DNA from: a phage
Strand: one strand, 5' to 3'
Assembly (NCBI GenBank): GCA_027262695.1
Contig: GCA_027262695.1_4722.1
Length of the DNA stretch: 64,000 bases
Notes under the pieces: model-generated
The model's input: only the letters and a program-made list of their open reading frames with translations
Database searches by the model: none
What the model was told of the DNA's origin: nothing
Part shown: positions 4,138-59,348 of the stretch, one piece after another
Layout: every line of letters starts with the position of its first letter
Position numbering within the stretch: position 1 is the first letter of the stretch
Program-made: the position numbers and the translations under genes

Positions 4138-4605
4138 CTATTCTCCGCGTCTTAGTACCTGAGTGTAGTAGAGGGCATAGACACCGCTTAACGTGTAATG
4201 GGTGTTAAATTCGTTATTGATGATATTCTGTATTTTCTCCCAGGTTCTCTTCTCTTTTCTAAGCGTGTGTATTCGGTGATAAATCATCTCTCGACGTTGC
4301 GCTTTACAGGCGACAATACCGTAACGGTAGCAGAGTTTAGCGATTGCTTCTGCGCTACGATTGAACATTACGGCAGCTTCTTTTACGCTATGTGTCTTGA
4401 GATAATCGGCTAACATCACGCGTTCATCAAAACAGCAGTAGCGATGACGTGACGCGAGTTTCCAGCGCTTGCGATTGCGGTTAATTCGACCTTGAACCGA
4501 ACCTTCCGTTCTGCCAAGCCGCTCTGCAATCTCTTGCATCGGTATACCGTTTCGATACAGGGTAATCAGCATCGCATCCTCTTCAGGTGTCCAGTCCTTG
4601 ACCAT
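4138..4605 (-). CDS. double Myb/SANT-like HTH protein, paralog 5
   Basis: WTPEEDAMLITLY...EIAERLGRTEGSVQGRINRNRKRW is a canonical Myb-repeat pattern; GAGG RBS. Confidence 0.6.
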   Translation of the reverse strand: MVKDWTPEEDAMLITLYRNGIPMQEIAERLGRTEGSVQGRINRNRKRWKLASRHRYCCFDERVMLADYLKTHSVKEAAVMFNRSAEAIAKLCYRYGIVACKAQRREMIYHRIHTLRKEKRTWEKIQNIINNEFNTHYTLSGVYALYYTQVLRRGE

Positions 4606-4615
4606 CGTATCTACC

Positions 4616-7414
<2,799 letters not shown>

Positions 7415-7461
7415 TAAAAGGTTTCCTCCATACGAAACCAAAAAGTTGTCAAAACGTACAT

Positions 7462-7504
7462 CGGCATAACGCCTGTGTCCACCCATGTTGGGAGGGACAC
7501 AGGC
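7462..7504 (-). terminator. GC hairpin followed by GTTATGCCG box
   Basis: Minus strand GCCTGTGTCC...GGACACAGGC GTTATGCCGATG. Confidence 0.5.
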
Positions 7505-7512
7505 GAATCACC

Positions 7513-8145
7513 TTACGATTTCACAACACATTCGACTTCGTCGTTCATGTACGCGTCGTATAAAGACAAGACTTCTTTCATTTTGATTTCAGGTAACGCA
7601 ACGGAACGTATCGCTTTCAAGATGTTCCGCGTTTGATGATGTTTTGCTGTGGCCTCACGTGCTTTACAGAACCGACGGATACAGGTATTAACTTTACCGC
7701 CTTCAGCACGTTCGAGAGCAACATGCAGCTTCAAATCAAGCAATACATCGGTAAGTTCCTGAGTAGCCGGATCGTTACGAATGAGTCGTACGGTATGTTC
7801 ATCAGGATTCAGCATCGTGAGGAACTGAAGTTTGATGTGCTCTGGTACCGGTTTCGTGTTCACCATGATGGCATCAAGCTGTTCTTTAACGTCCAACTCG
7901 TTGAACACATAACGTTCGACGTGTACAACATGTGCTTTTCCTGATTCACCGTAAATCGCCATCGCACGATAATCATCAAACAACACGACGTACATCAGAT
8001 CTTGTTCTGGTCCTAGGGTACCATCGATGAGTTTCGGGGCATGTTTCTTGAAGAAACCGTAACGAACAGCTTCATCCGGCTGGAGCGTCCACGCATTAAC
8101 AGGCTGTTTTACGAGTTCCATGTAACACCTCATCAAGATCATCAC
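7513..8145 (-). CDS. hypothetical protein
   Basis: 210-aa ORF, same strand, tight spacing. Confidence 0.5.
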   Translation of the reverse strand: MMILMRCYMELVKQPVNAWTLQPDEAVRYGFFKKHAPKLIDGTLGPEQDLMYVVLFDDYRAMAIYGESGKAHVVHVERYVFNELDVKEQLDAIMVNTKPVPEHIKLQFLTMLNPDEHTVRLIRNDPATQELTDVLLDLKLHVALERAEGGKVNTCIRRFCKAREATAKHHQTRNILKAIRSVALPEIKMKEVLSLYDAYMNDEVECVVKS

Positions 8146-18187: not shown

Positions 18188-19069
18188 TCAGTAACAGTTA
18201 TAATGGGTTCCAAGCCGCTCCGGTTTTCTCAGAAGACTATCTTTAAGCGGTACGACGTCGATATCAACGTTTTCTGAATAATAACCATTAGAACTACCAT
18301 ACCAACGAATAACAACACATCCTTTTGCTGTACGAATATGGTAAAATGTCCATCGCGTACGTTTGCAAAAGTCGTCATCCTCGTCTCTTTCCTCGGTTCT
18401 TTCTTCAGCGCTAAGTATCTTCTCACCAATAATGTCGTTAAGATCGCCATCGATGTCTTCAAGGTACACTTTTTCACAGCAATCTTGCTTATGGCAGAAT
18501 TCAACAACGTTCCCATCGCCCCGATAGAAAAGAAGGGCAATGCTGTATTGTAGCTGTTCGGCCGTTAAGTCTGTCGCGCAATACAAACTTTGATCTTCGG
18601 TTATCACCAAGACATTGTTGATTACGTGTCCGGCAAGCGCTCCGATCTTATTTACCGTGATAATCGGACGAACCGGTTCAGGTTGAACGATAGGGATACG
18701 AACACAGCCAATTAAAGCCATCCGTCCTTTCTTTGGTCTAACCGCAAGGTAAGGTGATTTTCTTGGGTGGTTATGTAGTCGTATTTCTACCTCGTTGAAT
18801 TTAATCCCGTATATACCCAAAAACCGATCGAACAGTTTATGAAATTCCTCGGTTGCCTCTTGCAGTGTGATGTTATTTACTGTGAGTTTATGTCCCCTGA
18901 ACACCCGGGTTAAATCGATAACATCCAGTGTTTTGAAATATATTTCCGTAAGGGGATGACCCGTGTTTTCCAGGTAAGTAATTGTTCTTTGAACCACGAT
19001 TTTAGGTGGTGTGCCTTTAAAACGTTTCAGATATTTAACACGATAACGGGTATGATCCGATGTTAACAT
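18188..19069 (-). CDS. hypothetical protein
   Basis: Start set to ATG 19069 after GGAGAGGAG RBS (ORF track start 19168 lies in a hairpin). Confidence 0.5.
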   Translation of the reverse strand: MLTSDHTRYRVKYLKRFKGTPPKIVVQRTITYLENTGHPLTEIYFKTLDVIDLTRVFRGHKLTVNNITLQEATEEFHKLFDRFLGIYGIKFNEVEIRLHNHPRKSPYLAVRPKKGRMALIGCVRIPIVQPEPVRPIITVNKIGALAGHVINNVLVITEDQSLYCATDLTAEQLQYSIALLFYRGDGNVVEFCHKQDCCEKVYLEDIDGDLNDIIGEKILSAEERTEERDEDDDFCKRTRWTFYHIRTAKGCVVIRWYGSSNGYYSENVDIDVVPLKDSLLRKPERLGTHYNCY

Positions 19070-55118: not shown

Positions 55119-55356
55119 TTAGCATTGGTTATTGATTGCTTCTATTTCATCGATATACGGTTCTACGTCATCGCCCTCCACGAATTCGTTGAACCAACAG
55201 TCAATCGTTGAGATAACCGGTGACTGATGTTCACATTTCTTAGATACCTTAAACGGAACGTTGTTATCCATCATACCGAGTTCGGGTCGGAATCGCCCGA
55301 AATGTTTCGCAGTCCAAATGTCTGGGACGATATGGTTGTTCATAGCGTCTCCGTCG
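55119..55356 (-). CDS. RNA polymerase beta-prime-like subunit N-terminal part, exon 3
   Basis: Begins C GAC GGA GAC GCT ATG (..DGDAMNNHIVP ~ DGDQMAVHVPL); ELGMMDNNVP ~ ALMMSTNNILSP. Confidence 0.7.
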
Positions 55357-55734
55357 CTGTTTGTCGACTATATCTTCATCTTCATTGCGAAGAGACTCTC
55401 GTTTGGGTTTGTGTTTAACAAAGCCTACTCTACTCAACATCGCGTCTTTCGATAGTCTGTGAGCACACATCTTAACGAATATTCGTGGGTTCCTACAGAC
55501 AGGTGAATATTCTTGTTGAGATGCTTCGCTGCGGATTATTCCCGTCCTACCTCTTTTACCATACCCAGTTCATTACGCTGGCCCTCATCGATGTCACCAT
55601 GATGAGTTGGTGTGTAGTCCGATTACAGAAACTTCCCGTCAATTAGAGAGTTTTAACTATGCTCCTGTTACCAGGAACCAGATCCCGACGGTATCAATAA
55701 ATCAACGTAAGTTATTGATTTAATTGAAAAAACT
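55357..55734 (-). mobile_element. group I intron 2 in beta-prime gene (no ORF)
   Basis: Minus-strand P AATTGACGGGAAG (55643-55631), Q AATCCGCAGCGAAG (55536-55523), R CACAGACTATCG (55460-55449), S AAGATATAGTC (55376-55366). Confidence 0.7.
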
Positions 55735-55747
55735 GAAATCTGCATTA
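55735..55747 (-). CDS. beta-prime micro-exon 2 (13 nt, encodes part of Y-N-A-D-F)
   Basis: Minus-strand ATAATGCAGATTT between the two introns; joined to flanking exons gives ...KGYNADFDGDAM... and a 1494-nt in-frame CDS. Confidence 0.6.
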
Positions 55748-56114
55748 TCTTAATCTTCGATATGGTTCGCTAAGCCATATCCGCACATACGTGCAGCTTA
55801 CGTCTTTCACGTAAGAAGAGACTATATCTTTCACCCTCAGCTTTACCTGTTAGGGGCTCCCATTTCGGCGGTCGTTTGACCGGTGGTTTCCCACGCCGCT
55901 TGGCCCTAACGCCCGTGAGCGATAGTCGTTGAGCACATCTCCGTTCTGGAGACTTCGCTGCGGATTCCTCAATCCTTACTGCTTTTACCGTACCTGAATG
56001 ATTAGTTCAGCCCCACGCTCTGTTCCCAGGCATGGTTGGTGAGCAAGGCTCTAAGTAGGTTCCCGCTATTAGAGAGTTCCTCGTGACAGCATTACTGTGT
56101 CACTGGGCCTAATG
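55748..56114 (-). mobile_element. group I intron 1 in beta-prime gene (no ORF)
   Basis: Minus-strand P AATAGCGGGAAC (56069-56058), Q AATCCGCAGCGAAG (55965-55952), R CAACGACTATCG (55930-55919), S AAGATATAGTC (55829-55819); exon ends GGGT, IGS GCCC. Confidence 0.7.
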
Positions 56115-57357
56115 ACCCTTTCAAGATCATCACGCTTAACCCGATGGTGTTATCCTGCGGGTCGCGTTTAACCTTGGTGATTTCAAGACATTGGTTACTG
56201 CTACGGTCAAGTGATGGATTTCGAACAAAGCCACACACAATCCCATCGAACGGTGTATCAGCAATAAGCTCGTCATGCAGCTCGCTCATCATCGGATGAT
56301 AATTGCGGACATGCTCTGCAACGAACGCACGGGCTGCTCTTGGTGAATAACCACGATGGAATAACTTGGATTGGATATGTTCTTTATTGGTTAGTGTAAA
56401 TGGTGCGTACGGAAAATGCAGATGATAATAACGATGGTTTGCTGTTATCGAACTGATGACCGTACGTGTGGTGAATGGATGTAATGTACCTAATATGTTC
56501 TTACGTGTGATCCCTTTCTTCTTACCAATGAACTCATCGAAAATCGCCGAGTGATACTGCAACAGCTTCAATTGCACTTTCGCCATCCAGTTTTCTTTCT
56601 TTCTGGCGCTTAGTGGCGTGGTTGGATGATAGATGCTATTCAATGTTCCGATGGCGTCTATCGCACCTTCCATTTTGCTGTCAGCGTAACGTCCTGTTGG
56701 CGTGTTCTCGATCACGAACATCATGGCTGCAGGAAAGCTGATGTACTGACTGAAGAATTTATCCCGATGAATACGGATGAATTCGCGTAGCGTATCAACC
56801 TTCTCCATGTTCTTCGGTCCACGTAGTGTGGGTCCTTTATACAAGATCTCCATGATACGATCGAAGTTCTGTATAAAGCTATTTATACCGCGTCGTATTC
56901 CGAATACATCGAATTGCTGTTCCAGATAGTTCTTAAGTTCGATCGGTCGTTTTACGTTCGGACGGTAACTGGCATCAATGAGCCACGTCATCGTTTCAAA
57001 GCTTTTGATATTCAACTCGCTTGCCAGCACGAGATGGACCAACGGGTTAATGAACGCATCGATACCTTCCGGTACGCGCGCCCAGACCGTTGAACGAATC
57101 TCTTGTTCTGCTGGATAAGTGACAACCGTTTTACAGTTCGGGCACACCGTCCCTAATAACTCACCGCGATTATAGAAACCACAACCGCATTGCGGGGTGA
57201 TATCCAAGGTATCGCTCGAGTAAACACGGGTGATGAAACTGTTTAATTTCTTCTTCTCTTCCACGACCTTCGTATCATAATCGTTCAACAATATCGGCGT
57301 AAAAGGAAGTTCTGCGAGCTGTCTATCGAAACTGACGATATCGAGCATGATGGCCAT
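56115..57357 (-). CDS. RNA polymerase beta-prime-like subunit N-terminal part, exon 1
   Basis: Zinc site TPQCGCGFYNRGELLGTVCPNCKTVV ~ beta-prime YECLCGKY...CEKCGVEV; RKNILG...RTVISS ~ RFRQNLLGKRVDYSGRSVI; VRNPSLDRS ~ LNRAPTLHR. Confidence 0.75.
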
Positions 57358-57449: not shown

Positions 57450-59348
57450 TTAGAACAGGTTGAATGCCCCGCCCATGCCGTTACCGCCCACATTCGGACG
57501 ATCGTTACGTGCGTAGATGTTGCCGCTGATGGTACCCAGACCGCGAGCACGTGCTGCCATGTTACCACGAACAGCGGTGCCTGCCAGATGCTGGATGTTC
57601 TCAGGACGGATGGTGAAGCCTGCTTCAGCAGCCGCTTCAATCAGTGCCTGCAACGCCAGCGGATCGAAATCATAACGCATCGCCCAGCCGGTTTGTTCCC
57701 AGCTACCAGACAGAACGCGGTCGATGATTTCGTGACGAGCAACCACACGCTGAGACATCGACATATCGGTACGGTCGAAGCTGTCTTCCCAAGCTTCTAC
57801 GGTATCCGGGTTGGTGATGTTCATCATGTACAGATCGTCCATATCACGAATATCGTGACGGTTACCGTCCTGGTGGTTGTAGTGACCCAGCGGGATACGG
57901 TTACCGGTCGCGTAGACCAGCGGTGAGCCGTACGGATATTTCTTGCTGAAGCAACCCAGGGTAACATCATCGAACGCACGGAAGAGGGCTTTGTAGCCTT
58001 CGGAGTATTCCTGTACGTCCCCTTCAACATTACCCGAGAAGATCTTCTCAGCCGCCGGGATCATACGCAGCAGCCAGCTGTACTCGCCTTCTTCTGGTAC
58101 ATCGATAGAGATCAGCAGAGACGGATACAGAACCTGTTGCAGGAACTTGTAAATCTGCTCGTTGGTTTGCGTAGACAGATCCAGCGGTGCAGTCACTTCA
58201 GGATCCAGCACCATCGCCAGAGCACCTGGGTTATGCGGACCAATACCACGAGCCGCGTTGCTGATTAAAGACTGTGCCCATGCCATGCCGCTGTTCAGCG
58301 TAGCGATGGTACCAATCAGACCCAGCACGAAGCTGTTCGGCGTGAACGCATCCAGTTCCAGCGGATACATGCTGGTCATTACGTAGCGCGGCTGGTACTG
58401 AACAGTTGGCGGTACCGGATAACCGTTAACCAGAACAGGACCTTGCTGGAAGGTCGGGTTCTGCGGGCTGTAGGTCAGATCGATATAACCGGTGGATGCA
58501 ACCAGACGCTGCTGGCTATCGTAATCGCCCATCGCTTGACGGATGCGGTTAGAGATAGTTACAGTAATGTCGGAGCGTACCGGGTTACCCGCGATATCAC
58601 TGTCCTGCATGCCGCTGGTGTTATACTGAACGCTGCTGATCGGCTGGTCGCTTGCCATCATACCCAGGTTGAACTGAGGCAGGCCCAGTCTGTCAGCAAA
58701 ACGCATTTCGGTTGCCGTCTGGATCGCGTTATCTGCTGCAGACAGCAGGGTGGTTGCCAGATGCGCAGATTCAGCAGTGATTTCATTGGTCACAACAGCC
58801 AGACCAGCGATACGTACCGTACCGTTGGCTTTACCACCGATAGCCGCATACATCGCTGCCATGACTTCGTTGATGAACGTGCCGTTCAGGTTATCCACCC
58901 AAGTACATGGTACCAGGATGTTACCGTGAGGACCACGTTCTTCACGACGTGGCAGCGGAGCCAGGCCAGCAACCAGCGGAAGGACGTAACCGAAGAAGTG
59001 GTTATGATCGCCCACTTTTACACCGCTCATCACAACCAGGGTCGGATACGGTACGCTGTACTGGTTCGGGTCAACCGCAACAAAGATGAAGTCGTCTTTG
59101 AACTGGGTATCTTCCAGATATTTCTCCATCAGACGACGGAGATTCAGTACCTGCTCGGAGCCGGTATTACGGCTGATACGACGGCTCAGTGTACGGTTGA
59201 TCGTACGCATCGTATGAGTTACTTTAGGACGGTCAGCAAAATCTGCAGCGGTTTCGACCGCTTCGTTAGCGCGCTGCGCCGCGCGGGTTTCAGCTACGCG
59301 GATGTCTACGTTATCGTTACCGTTATTGTTACGTACGTCTAAGCCCAT
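57450..59348 (-). CDS. large early protein, candidate nuclear-shell (chimallin-like) protein
   Basis: 632 aa, TATATTAC-type box 71 nt upstream, directly upstream of beta-prime gene (as recalled for phiKZ gp54/gp55); no diagnostic motif identified. Confidence 0.4.
   Translation of the reverse strand: MGLDVRNNNGNDNVDIRVAETRAAQRANEAVETAADFADRPKVTHTMRTINRTLSRRISRNTGSEQVLNLRRLMEKYLEDTQFKDDFIFVAVDPNQYSVPYPTLVVMSGVKVGDHNHFFGYVLPLVAGLAPLPRREERGPHGNILVPCTWVDNLNGTFINEVMAAMYAAIGGKANGTVRIAGLAVVTNEITAESAHLATTLLSAADNAIQTATEMRFADRLGLPQFNLGMMASDQPISSVQYNTSGMQDSDIAGNPVRSDITVTISNRIRQAMGDYDSQQRLVASTGYIDLTYSPQNPTFQQGPVLVNGYPVPPTVQYQPRYVMTSMYPLELDAFTPNSFVLGLIGTIATLNSGMAWAQSLISNAARGIGPHNPGALAMVLDPEVTAPLDLSTQTNEQIYKFLQQVLYPSLLISIDVPEEGEYSWLLRMIPAAEKIFSGNVEGDVQEYSEGYKALFRAFDDVTLGCFSKKYPYGSPLVYATGNRIPLGHYNHQDGNRHDIRDMDDLYMMNITNPDTVEAWEDSFDRTDMSMSQRVVARHEIIDRVLSGSWEQTGWAMRYDFDPLALQALIEAAAEAGFTIRPENIQHLAGTAVRGNMAARARGLGTISGNIYARNDRPNVGGNGMGGAFNLF

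Follow-up and report, generated by a model that had tools for sequence, protein, structure and literature searches.

The window, that is, the whole stretch of phage DNA analysed here, is 64,000 nucleotides (nt) of contig GCA_027262695.1_4722.1 (assembly GCA_027262695.1). The gene under study lies on its minus strand and starts at 57357; it is the counterpart of gp247 of Escherichia phage vB_EcoM_Goslar, which is annotated there as 'RNA polymerase beta subunit'. Goslar is a nucleus-forming jumbo phage with which the window shares 92% DNA identity in this region, and its two database records were the only near matches to the window among 50,697 phage records. Read without splicing, the gene is an open reading frame (ORF) of 421 amino acids (aa) at 57357..56092 (minus strand), whose stop stands 7 codons past ..VMILKG. 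Sequence comparison identifies its product as the N-terminal half of the beta-prime subunit of the non-virion RNA polymerase, a homologue of phiKZ gp55. Our analysis indicates, with a probability of roughly 93%, that this gene is interrupted by two group I introns, unlike each other and both ORF-less, which lie 13 nt from one another among the codons for the catalytic Mg-binding loop.

The exon and intron boundaries were set by comparison with Goslar under three conditions: the base before each 5' splice site is U, each intron ends in G, and the reading frame stays open. In Goslar, gp247 is followed by an Intron_gpI feature, then by an HNH endonuclease gene, and then by a 79-aa 'hypothetical protein'. 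The alignment with Goslar showed that exon 1 is matched up to window position 56117, that 55748..55364 corresponds to the annotated Goslar intron, that the 79-aa ORF matches the window from 55343 onward, and that 56116..55749 has no counterpart in Goslar. Only one solution combined the U, the terminal G and the open frame, as follows.

Exon 1: 57357..56115, minus strand; ends ...ATC TTG AAA GGG T; 92% identical to Goslar gp247, and its product aligns to phiKZ gp55 (PDB chain 7ogp_A).
Intron A: 56114..55749, minus strand; predicted ORF-less group I intron of 366 nt, CATTAGGCCC...GATTAAG; based on Rfam RF00028, covariation and its absence from Goslar.
Mini-exon: 55748..55736, minus strand; ATAATGCAGATTT, 13 nt, coding for (Y)NAD(F); placed as in the contiguous Goslar sequence (TATAATGCCGACTT) and in the exon of relative L014.
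Intron B: 55735..55357, minus strand; predicted ORF-less group I intron of 379 nt, CAGTTTTTT...GACAAACAG; based on RF00028, likeness to the Goslar Intron_gpI and its absence from L014.
Exon 3: 55356..55119, minus strand; starts CGACGGAGACGCTATGAAC... and codes for (F)DGDAMNNHIVPD... to the stop codon; from the reconstruction, matching phiKZ gp55 residues 440-495.

The predicted ligated junctions, marked by slashes, read AAAGGGT/ATAATGCAGATTT/CGACGGAGAC. An earlier note on this DNA had given 56114 and 55357 as the limits of the interruption, and our reconstruction begins intron A and ends intron B at precisely these two bases. The transcript shortening of 745 nt that it expected equals 366 + 379 in our reconstruction, which means that the 13-nt exon stays in place. 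It had also placed the stop of the annotated ORF where NADFDGD is due, in agreement with the end of the 421-aa ORF at 56092. Its description of two copies of a ~370-nt element was right as to two elements but overstated their likeness, as introns A and B share one 141-nt stretch with 64.5% identity plus short core motifs. By sequence they belong to one structural class but are distinct introns, and do not stem from a recent duplication.

Joining the exons gave a protein of 497 aa (..GLSVMILKG-YNADFDGDAM-NNHIVPDIW...) in which the catalytic loop YNADFDGD is unbroken. Its best match among the PDB sequences was phiKZ gp55 (7ogp_A, E 8.1e-75), in a single alignment of residues 21-476 that crosses both junctions without a gap at either; around the loop, ..lkgYNADFDGDAMNNHIVPD of the spliced protein aligns with ..lkaPNADFDGDQLNLTLMPD of phiKZ gp55. 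Cellular beta-prime and Rpb1 chains came next in this search, with E of ~1e-3 to 1e-4 over a region that ends at the catalytic loop. Pfam PF00623 (Rpb1 domain 2) was matched by the spliced protein at 37.1 bits (cut-off 25.3), and no Pfam match was found for the unspliced 421-aa ORF. The homology to gp55, the NADFDGD loop and the N-terminal zinc-binding cysteines together place the protein among the jumbo-phage non-virion beta-prime subunits of the phiKZ gp55 type. Uninterrupted homologues were identified in P0002 (65% identity) and P0003 (61%), and ..ILKGYNADFDGDAMNHH.. was read in P0002. The tryptic peptide predicted across the junctions of the spliced product is GYNADFDGDAMNNHIVPDIWTAK, and Goslar has an identical one.

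The same data bear on the possibility that the gene is permanently split, separate polypeptides of 421 aa and 74 aa assembling without any RNA splicing. Jumbo-phage beta and beta-prime subunits are known to be coded in pieces (PMC7598289), and the public Goslar annotation has two ORFs apart. However, no reading frame would then code for YNADF, since translation finds no start codon in the 13-nt exon and the ORF of 74 aa begins only after DGDA. A separately encoded fragment carrying NADFDGD, which the earlier note had named as evidence that would speak against introns, was looked for in the six frames of the window and was not found; the search revealed no contiguous RNAP-type DxDGD in any frame, the only DIDGD, at 18457 on the minus strand, being unrelated. 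The unspliced ORF, as said, has no Pfam domain match, and the intron-less relatives are contiguous at exactly the point of the proposed split. We therefore regard a permanently split gene as very improbable and retain the reading of two introns.

Analysis of the ribozyme elements was carried out on the minus strand. All the P, Q, R and S elements quoted in the earlier note were found there in canonical order in both introns. The elements, the splice-site helices and the cores are given below.

P element: AATAGCGGGAAC at 56070..56059 (intron A) and AATTGACGGGAAG at 55644..55632 (intron B), minus strand.
Q element: AATCCGCAGC at 55966..55957 (intron A) and at 55537..55528 (intron B), minus strand.
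R element: CAACGACTATCG at 55931..55920 (intron A) and CACAGACTATCG at 55461..55450 (intron B), minus strand.
S element: AAGATATAGTC at 55830..55820 (intron A) and at 55376..55366 (intron B), minus strand.
Intron A P1: 56118..56105, minus strand; exon GGGT (56118..56115) with guide GCCC (56108..56105), U·G at the splice site.
Intron A P10: 55747..55743, minus strand; mini-exon TAATG with intron CATTA (56114..56110), 5 bp.
Intron A core: 55927..55820, minus strand; P7 GACTAT (55927..55922) with ATAGTC (55825..55820), enclosing the P3 3' strand GGGAG (55861..55857) and P8.
Intron B guide: 55691..55679, minus strand; CCGTCG-GGATCTG, whose 3' part pairs with mini-exon CAGATTT (55742..55736) as P1.
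Intron B core: 55457..55366, minus strand; P7 GACTAT (55457..55452) with ATAGTC (55371..55366), enclosing the P3 3' strand GAGAG (55400..55396) and P8.

The first 5' splice site thus follows GGGT and has its GCCC guide 6 intron bases further on, as had been proposed before. P1 of intron A closes a 6-nt loop, CATTAG, and this loop supplies P10. In intron B, the 5' part of the guide (CCGUCG) pairs with the first six bases of exon 3, CGACGG (55356..55351), to give a P10 of 6 bp, so that the sequence has the form of a textbook adjacent P10/P1 guide; the P1 loop of this intron holds a 13-bp hairpin. Both introns end in G (..TTAAG in A, ..AACAG in B), both 5' exons end in U, and the U·G at the splice site is invariant in both (GGGU/GCCC in A, CAGAUUU/GGAUCUG in B). 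P3, P4, P6, P7 and P8 were found in canonical order with P3 and P7 interleaved, which, with P, Q, R and S, makes up a group I core. Helices were assigned by hand in both introns, and P9 is absent from intron B. The P9 hairpin is missing in the window, L003 and L006, whose 3' ends were read, with 8-9 nt from P7 to the terminal G. Between P7 and the P3 3' strand, both introns have 50-60 nt with conserved hairpins, with one compensatory change in B. Extra P7.1/P7.2 helices at this place are characteristic of subgroup IA, the phage-type subgroup to which, for example, T4 td belongs. In our tentative reading, both introns may belong to subgroup IA.

The helices were hand-assigned from the window sequence with the flanking exon bases included, and the pairs were then counted on alignments of close relatives (window, Goslar, L003 and L006 for intron B; window, L003 and L006 for intron A). 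Intron A P5, for which two alternative pairings fit, and intron B P7.1 were left out of the counted structures. Intron B had 106 pairs, of which 6 were compensatory (reached in 0 of 500 shuffles), and intron A had 96 pairs with 4 compensatory (reached in 3 of 500); controls with slid pairings gave 0-1 in either case. Two of the six double changes of intron B lie in P1, where the window and Goslar differ by A-U to C-G and U-A to C-G. The exon side of this helix is CAGAUUU in the window and CCGACUU in Goslar, synonymous for A-D-F, and the intron guide tracks the exon, being GGAUCUG in the window and GAGUCGG in Goslar. A plain MAFFT alignment of intron A with intron B was poor and was not used for structure.

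These helices suggest how the two introns would be removed. Each would fold on the pre-mRNA into a group I core and bind its 5' exon through P1, with the U·G wobble at the cleavage site; a free guanosine would then attack, and the 3' exon, aligned through P10, would be ligated after the terminal G. The mini-exon is divided almost wholly between the two ribozymes, its bases 2-6 forming P10 of intron A and its bases 7-13 forming P1 of intron B. As these bases do not overlap, either intron could splice first. The two reactions would not compete for bases, their order would be free, and the outcome would be the 497-aa subunit with an intact YNADFDGD loop.

Partial or alternative removal would give different products. 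Splicing of intron A alone would yield ..YNADFSFFN and a stop, and splicing of intron B alone would keep the original stop. Removal of the whole 758 nt, including the mini-exon, shifts the frame and gives ..ILKGSTETL and a stop, a product of 419 aa without the catalytic loop. A functional subunit therefore needs both reactions with the mini-exon included. It might still be argued that a composite ribozyme removes all 758 nt, in the manner of exon skipping in Twort orf142, since skipping has been documented for Twort (a 23-nt exon between similar IA2 introns) and for Coxiella (a 34-nt exon) (PMC10136302). Against this, skipping could only be a wasteful by-product because of the frame shift and the loss of the loop; the two introns are dissimilar, with 64.5% identity over 141 nt, and each possesses its own matched P1 and P10. 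We consider a composite ribozyme extremely unlikely, and two separately spliced introns remain the preferred reading.

We then compared the locus in close relatives. The metagenome contigs were scanned with a 32-nt stretch of intron A, which gave five more relatives; this sampling is biased to alleles bearing intron A, so that the allele counts below are not frequencies.

Window: introns A and B.
L003, L006, L013, L015, L016 and L017: introns A, B and C, separated by two exons of 13 nt each and confined to 26 exon bases.
Goslar: introns B (with endonuclease) and C.
L014: intron A (with endonuclease) only.
L005: introns D and C', around the 18-nt exon GACTTTGACGGTGATGCC.

Goslar, which has no intron A, reads AAAGGTTATAATGCCGACTT across the A site, and L014, which has neither B nor C, reads ATAATGCTGATTTCGACGGGGACGCGATGAAC across both of their sites. 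These alleles are colinear with the predicted ligated exons and are the strongest evidence for the junctions short of cDNA. In total, four insertion sites fall within the ten codons of YNADFDGDAM among eleven Goslar-like sequences (the window and ten public loci), and distant relatives have further sites. Downstream of the gene, L017 (JACXXQ010000003.1) and the window are 99.5% identical, and yet L017 has intron C, showing that the presence of this intron differs between very close relatives. The earlier proposal of two ORF-less introns at the catalytic centre of beta-prime is thus supported by the restored YNADFDGD, the alignment to gp55, the group I cores, the compensatory changes and the intron-less alleles.

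No homing endonuclease was found in either intron, as had been proposed before: the window introns contain only ORFs of 40-68 aa, none with a Pfam match, and tblastn identified no homologue of the Goslar intron endonuclease in the window (best E 0.52). They thus lack the endonuclease of their own that marks a mobile (homing) intron. Such genes are present in relatives. At 6644-8024 (minus strand) of L014 (NFYZ01000026.1), intron A occurs in a version with a 323-aa I-HmuI-like HNH ORF. This ORF occupies the P1 loop, with the 5' splice site on one side and the GCCC guide on the other, and its last codons and stop overlap the guide. The P10 pairing of this L014 intron is not obvious. Goslar intron B carries a 336-aa HNH/NUMOD1 ORF in the loop of a 12-bp P9 stem (ACGTGCACCGAC/GTCGGTGCACGT). 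In Pfam, the Goslar ORF passes the HNH_3 and NUMOD1 cut-offs, and the L014 ORF is under the cut-off for HNH_3 and for the I-HmuI NUMOD-like domain; the two ORFs share 27% identity over 304 aa (E 2e-26). These HNH-bearing versions indicate that the window has the endonuclease-less forms of two introns that are elsewhere of the mobile type.

Several points weigh against the reading of two spliced introns. What we observed directly is the sequence, the structure, the covariation, the colinearity with intron-less alleles and the restored protein homology; actual splicing and its order we infer from the sequence. The window might also come from a phage that is not viable. In the search with Rfam RF00028 (Intron_gpI), whose gathering score is 50 bits, no match at that score was found in the whole 64-kb window. 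In E-value mode, intron B was matched at 55726..55357 with 49.2 bits (E 3.8e-11 in a 1.4-kb region, 1.7e-9 in the whole window) and intron A at 56135..55798 with 26.9 bits (E 1.8e-4 in the region, 0.008 in the whole window); intron B is just below the cut-off and intron A falls well short of it. The Rfam scan proposed by the earlier note thus returned two matches that cover the whole model (positions 1-253) but lie under its gathering score. The lack of P9 in intron B, where only 9 nt separate P7 from the terminal G, could weaken the selection of its 3' splice site. Paired cells amounted to 99.5% in intron B and 99.7% in intron A, percentages that are biased upward because the helices were drawn from the window and only 3-4 sequences of 90-93% identity were compared. 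Minimum-free-energy folding recovered many of the helices, and its z-scores were modest (-3.1 for A, -1.5 for B).

The shortfall in Rfam touches the curated cut-off only, the structural features of group I introns being present; the Goslar counterpart of intron B scores 46.9 bits, yet it is annotated as Intron_gpI in the public record. No other introns were found in the window, only A and B matching RF00028 at E <=0.05 across the 64 kb. The informative part of the covariation is the double changes set against the slid controls. As minimum-free-energy folding cannot represent the P3/P7 pseudoknot and its z-scores were modest, the hand-assigned helices were preferred.

A rival reading is that one or both introns are decayed relics that no longer splice, leaving a pseudogene in a genome that is defective or merely assembled. 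The loss of the endonuclease genes from both introns and of P9 from intron B, the two Rfam scores under the cut-off and the question of viability are in keeping with this. On the other hand, every core helix is intact and the variation among relatives is compensatory; an ORF-less and P9-less intron B is conserved in seven other assemblies (3' ends read in L003 and L006); and the exons are in frame and at least 94% identical to those of relatives. The subunit also bears the catalytic aspartates, and the polymerase they serve is essential to phiKZ-like phages. Decay is therefore quite unlikely in our view, and two introns that splice are still preferred.

The relatives also allowed further observations. 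In Goslar NC_048170 (L001), a second, unannotated group I intron of 355 nt (intron C, 4253-4607) lies 13 nt past the annotated one and has a partial Rfam match of 16.7 bits. Goslar gp185, the 79-aa 'hypothetical protein' (4593-4832), is the last polymerase exon, and its annotated ATG is within the last 15 nt of intron C. In L005 (IMGVR_UViG_3300011560_000001, 5246-5976), intron D follows AAC GCT and intron C' follows GAT GCC, and the 18-nt exon between them codes for DFDGDA. Intron C' follows a C, with C-G in place of U·G at the splice site. Intron D is 78% identical to Goslar intron C over ~175 nt and both P1 pair GCU with GGC, but their 5' ends are not alike, and in each the P10 matches its own, different 3' exon; by sequence this looks like a retargeting of one intron family. 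The tail of intron A (55798..55753, the last ~50 nt with P9.1/P9.2) matches the tail of the otherwise different intron D, the window copy at 83% identity and the copies of relatives at up to 100% (over 31 nt), which suggests mosaic introns formed by recombination.

Upon blastn search against the 50,697 phage records, the introns were matched at full length only by Goslar (intron B). The remaining matches were 60-130-nt cores in Bacillus, Enterococcus, Pseudoalteromonas, Vibrio and Escherichia phages. A 70-nt match to the intron B core (77.5%) was found in PhiPA3 (HQ630627, 55218-55287) under gene 065, annotated as an RNA polymerase beta fragment like phiKZ gp071, and may point to an intron in a further PhiPA3 polymerase gene. 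At the record start of the unrelated Escherichia phage Av-05 (KM190144, 46-152), an unannotated stretch matches bases 149-252 of intron A (78.5%, E 3e-15) and is, judging from this match, probably an unannotated group I intron.

Eighty cluster representatives homologous to the spliced protein were also investigated. NADxDGD was contiguous in 65 of the 80, and 13 of the 80 stop at the motif or within it, their breaks following G, NA, NAD, NADFD or NADFDG. Four of the interrupted loci were fetched. L007, from a distant chimallivirus, has an intron after DFDG with 87.8 bits against RF00028, above the cut-off, and an HNH gene; L009 has a partial RF00028 match cut by the contig end; and L008 has no RF00028 match. 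L010 (ERZ27249479 k141_82391, 4228-4937), from a distant chimallivirus, has tandem introns of 54.8 and 68.3 bits, above the cut-off, around a 12-nt exon, GATTTCGACGGT, and the second of them has a perfect P1, GACGGU/GCCGUC. The occurrence of this pair in the same loop indicates that tandem introns with a tiny exon arose there more than once. A gene of IS605 OrfB/TnpB type lies ~1 kb downstream in L010. Another homologue, P0056, breaks off at ..ITQRN/ELN, in the conserved RNPSL motif ~40 residues upstream of the catalytic loop, and this may be another interruption site.

All four fetched loci directly follow a chimallin gene, and the same order of genes is found in the window.

Chimallin gene: 59348..57450, minus strand; 632-aa ORF, counterpart of the Goslar nuclear shell protein, from the ORF list and the Goslar comparison; directly upstream of the interrupted polymerase gene, in the same order as in relatives.

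Taken together, the alleles permit a tentative and rather doubtful idea, that the YNADFDGDAM codons of the chimallivirus beta-prime gene are a contested landing strip for competing intron lineages. Introns bearing endonucleases would invade the site, and their ORF-less derivatives, among them the two of the window, would persist by destroying the target sites of the endonucleases of co-infecting relatives, that is, as immunity. The C/D family would have moved to a second site, at a distance of 18 nt, through a change confined to the P10 half of its guide, which would suggest transposition by reverse splicing. If this idea is true, the allele series among phages of >90% identity would be a natural system for intron-mediated competition.

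Whatever the history of the site, the gene model is to be corrected. The annotation of the window and of Goslar gives a truncated protein and a small 'hypothetical protein', and the true product would be a 497-aa protein with an intact loop. The introns must splice in phages whose nucleus separates transcription from translation. The allele series (A with endonuclease; A and B; A, B and C; B with endonuclease and C; D and C') offers material for the study of intron gain, intron loss and endonuclease-driven competition like that between PhiPA3 and phiKZ.

Introns in jumbo-phage polymerase genes, tandem introns around short exons and, in Goslar, intron B itself are already known, and the system is not of a new kind. 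The literature search found no report on introns within this gene's DFDGD codons, nor on polymorphism in the Goslar group, older subscription papers being only partly reachable, and introns are not mentioned in the paper describing Goslar. The Goslar Intron_gpI (HOV27_gs001 in NC_048170) is the same intron as B: it is 92% identical, shares the core, and splits the Phe codon of NADFDGD at the same point, behind its second base. However, the Goslar copy has the P9 stem and an HNH endonuclease gene (gp186), both of which intron B of the window lacks; Goslar has no intron A, and its intron C, 13 nt downstream, is absent from the window.

In PhiPA3, Birkholz et al. 2024 (PMC11620839) reported a group I intron with an HNH endonuclease in gp210, a chimallivirus RNA polymerase gene; the endonuclease was tested experimentally and gives an advantage in competition with phiKZ. 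As in the window, that intron interrupts a multisubunit polymerase gene of a nucleus-forming jumbo phage at conserved residues of the active site. Its enzyme is of the I-HmuI-like HNH type, as is the one in the L014 version of intron A. It differs in lying in a beta-type gene (homologue of phiKZ gp178) and not in the beta-prime gene gp55, at another site, as a single and endonuclease-bearing intron. The AR9 non-virion beta-prime N-terminal subunit is listed among the intron-disrupted polymerase genes of AR9-like jumbo phages in a preprint citing Lavysh et al. 2016 (bioRxiv 10.1101/2020.12.14.422802); AR9 is of another phage lineage and host than the window. Introns and a homing nuclease are also shown in the virion-polymerase schemes of SPN3US and phiKZ.

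The closest parallels to the tandem arrangement come from PMC10136302, which summarises Landthaler & Shub 1999 on Twort orf142: of the three group I introns there, two are similar IA2 introns on either side of a 23-nt exon, and exon skipping occurs. In the Coxiella 23S rRNA gene, tandem group I introns flank a 34-nt exon (PMC10136302). The window resembles Twort in having tandem phage group I introns and a very short exon that gives P10 to one intron and P1 to the next. Unlike in Twort, its two introns are dissimilar, skipping would be lethal to the product, and close relatives have three introns with two 13-nt exons. Its 13-nt exon is below the 23 nt and 34 nt of these natural examples and makes a compact test case for how neighbouring ribozymes avoid skipping. 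What is distinctive here is this 13-nt exon, its neat division between two ribozymes, and the rich allele series in close relatives.

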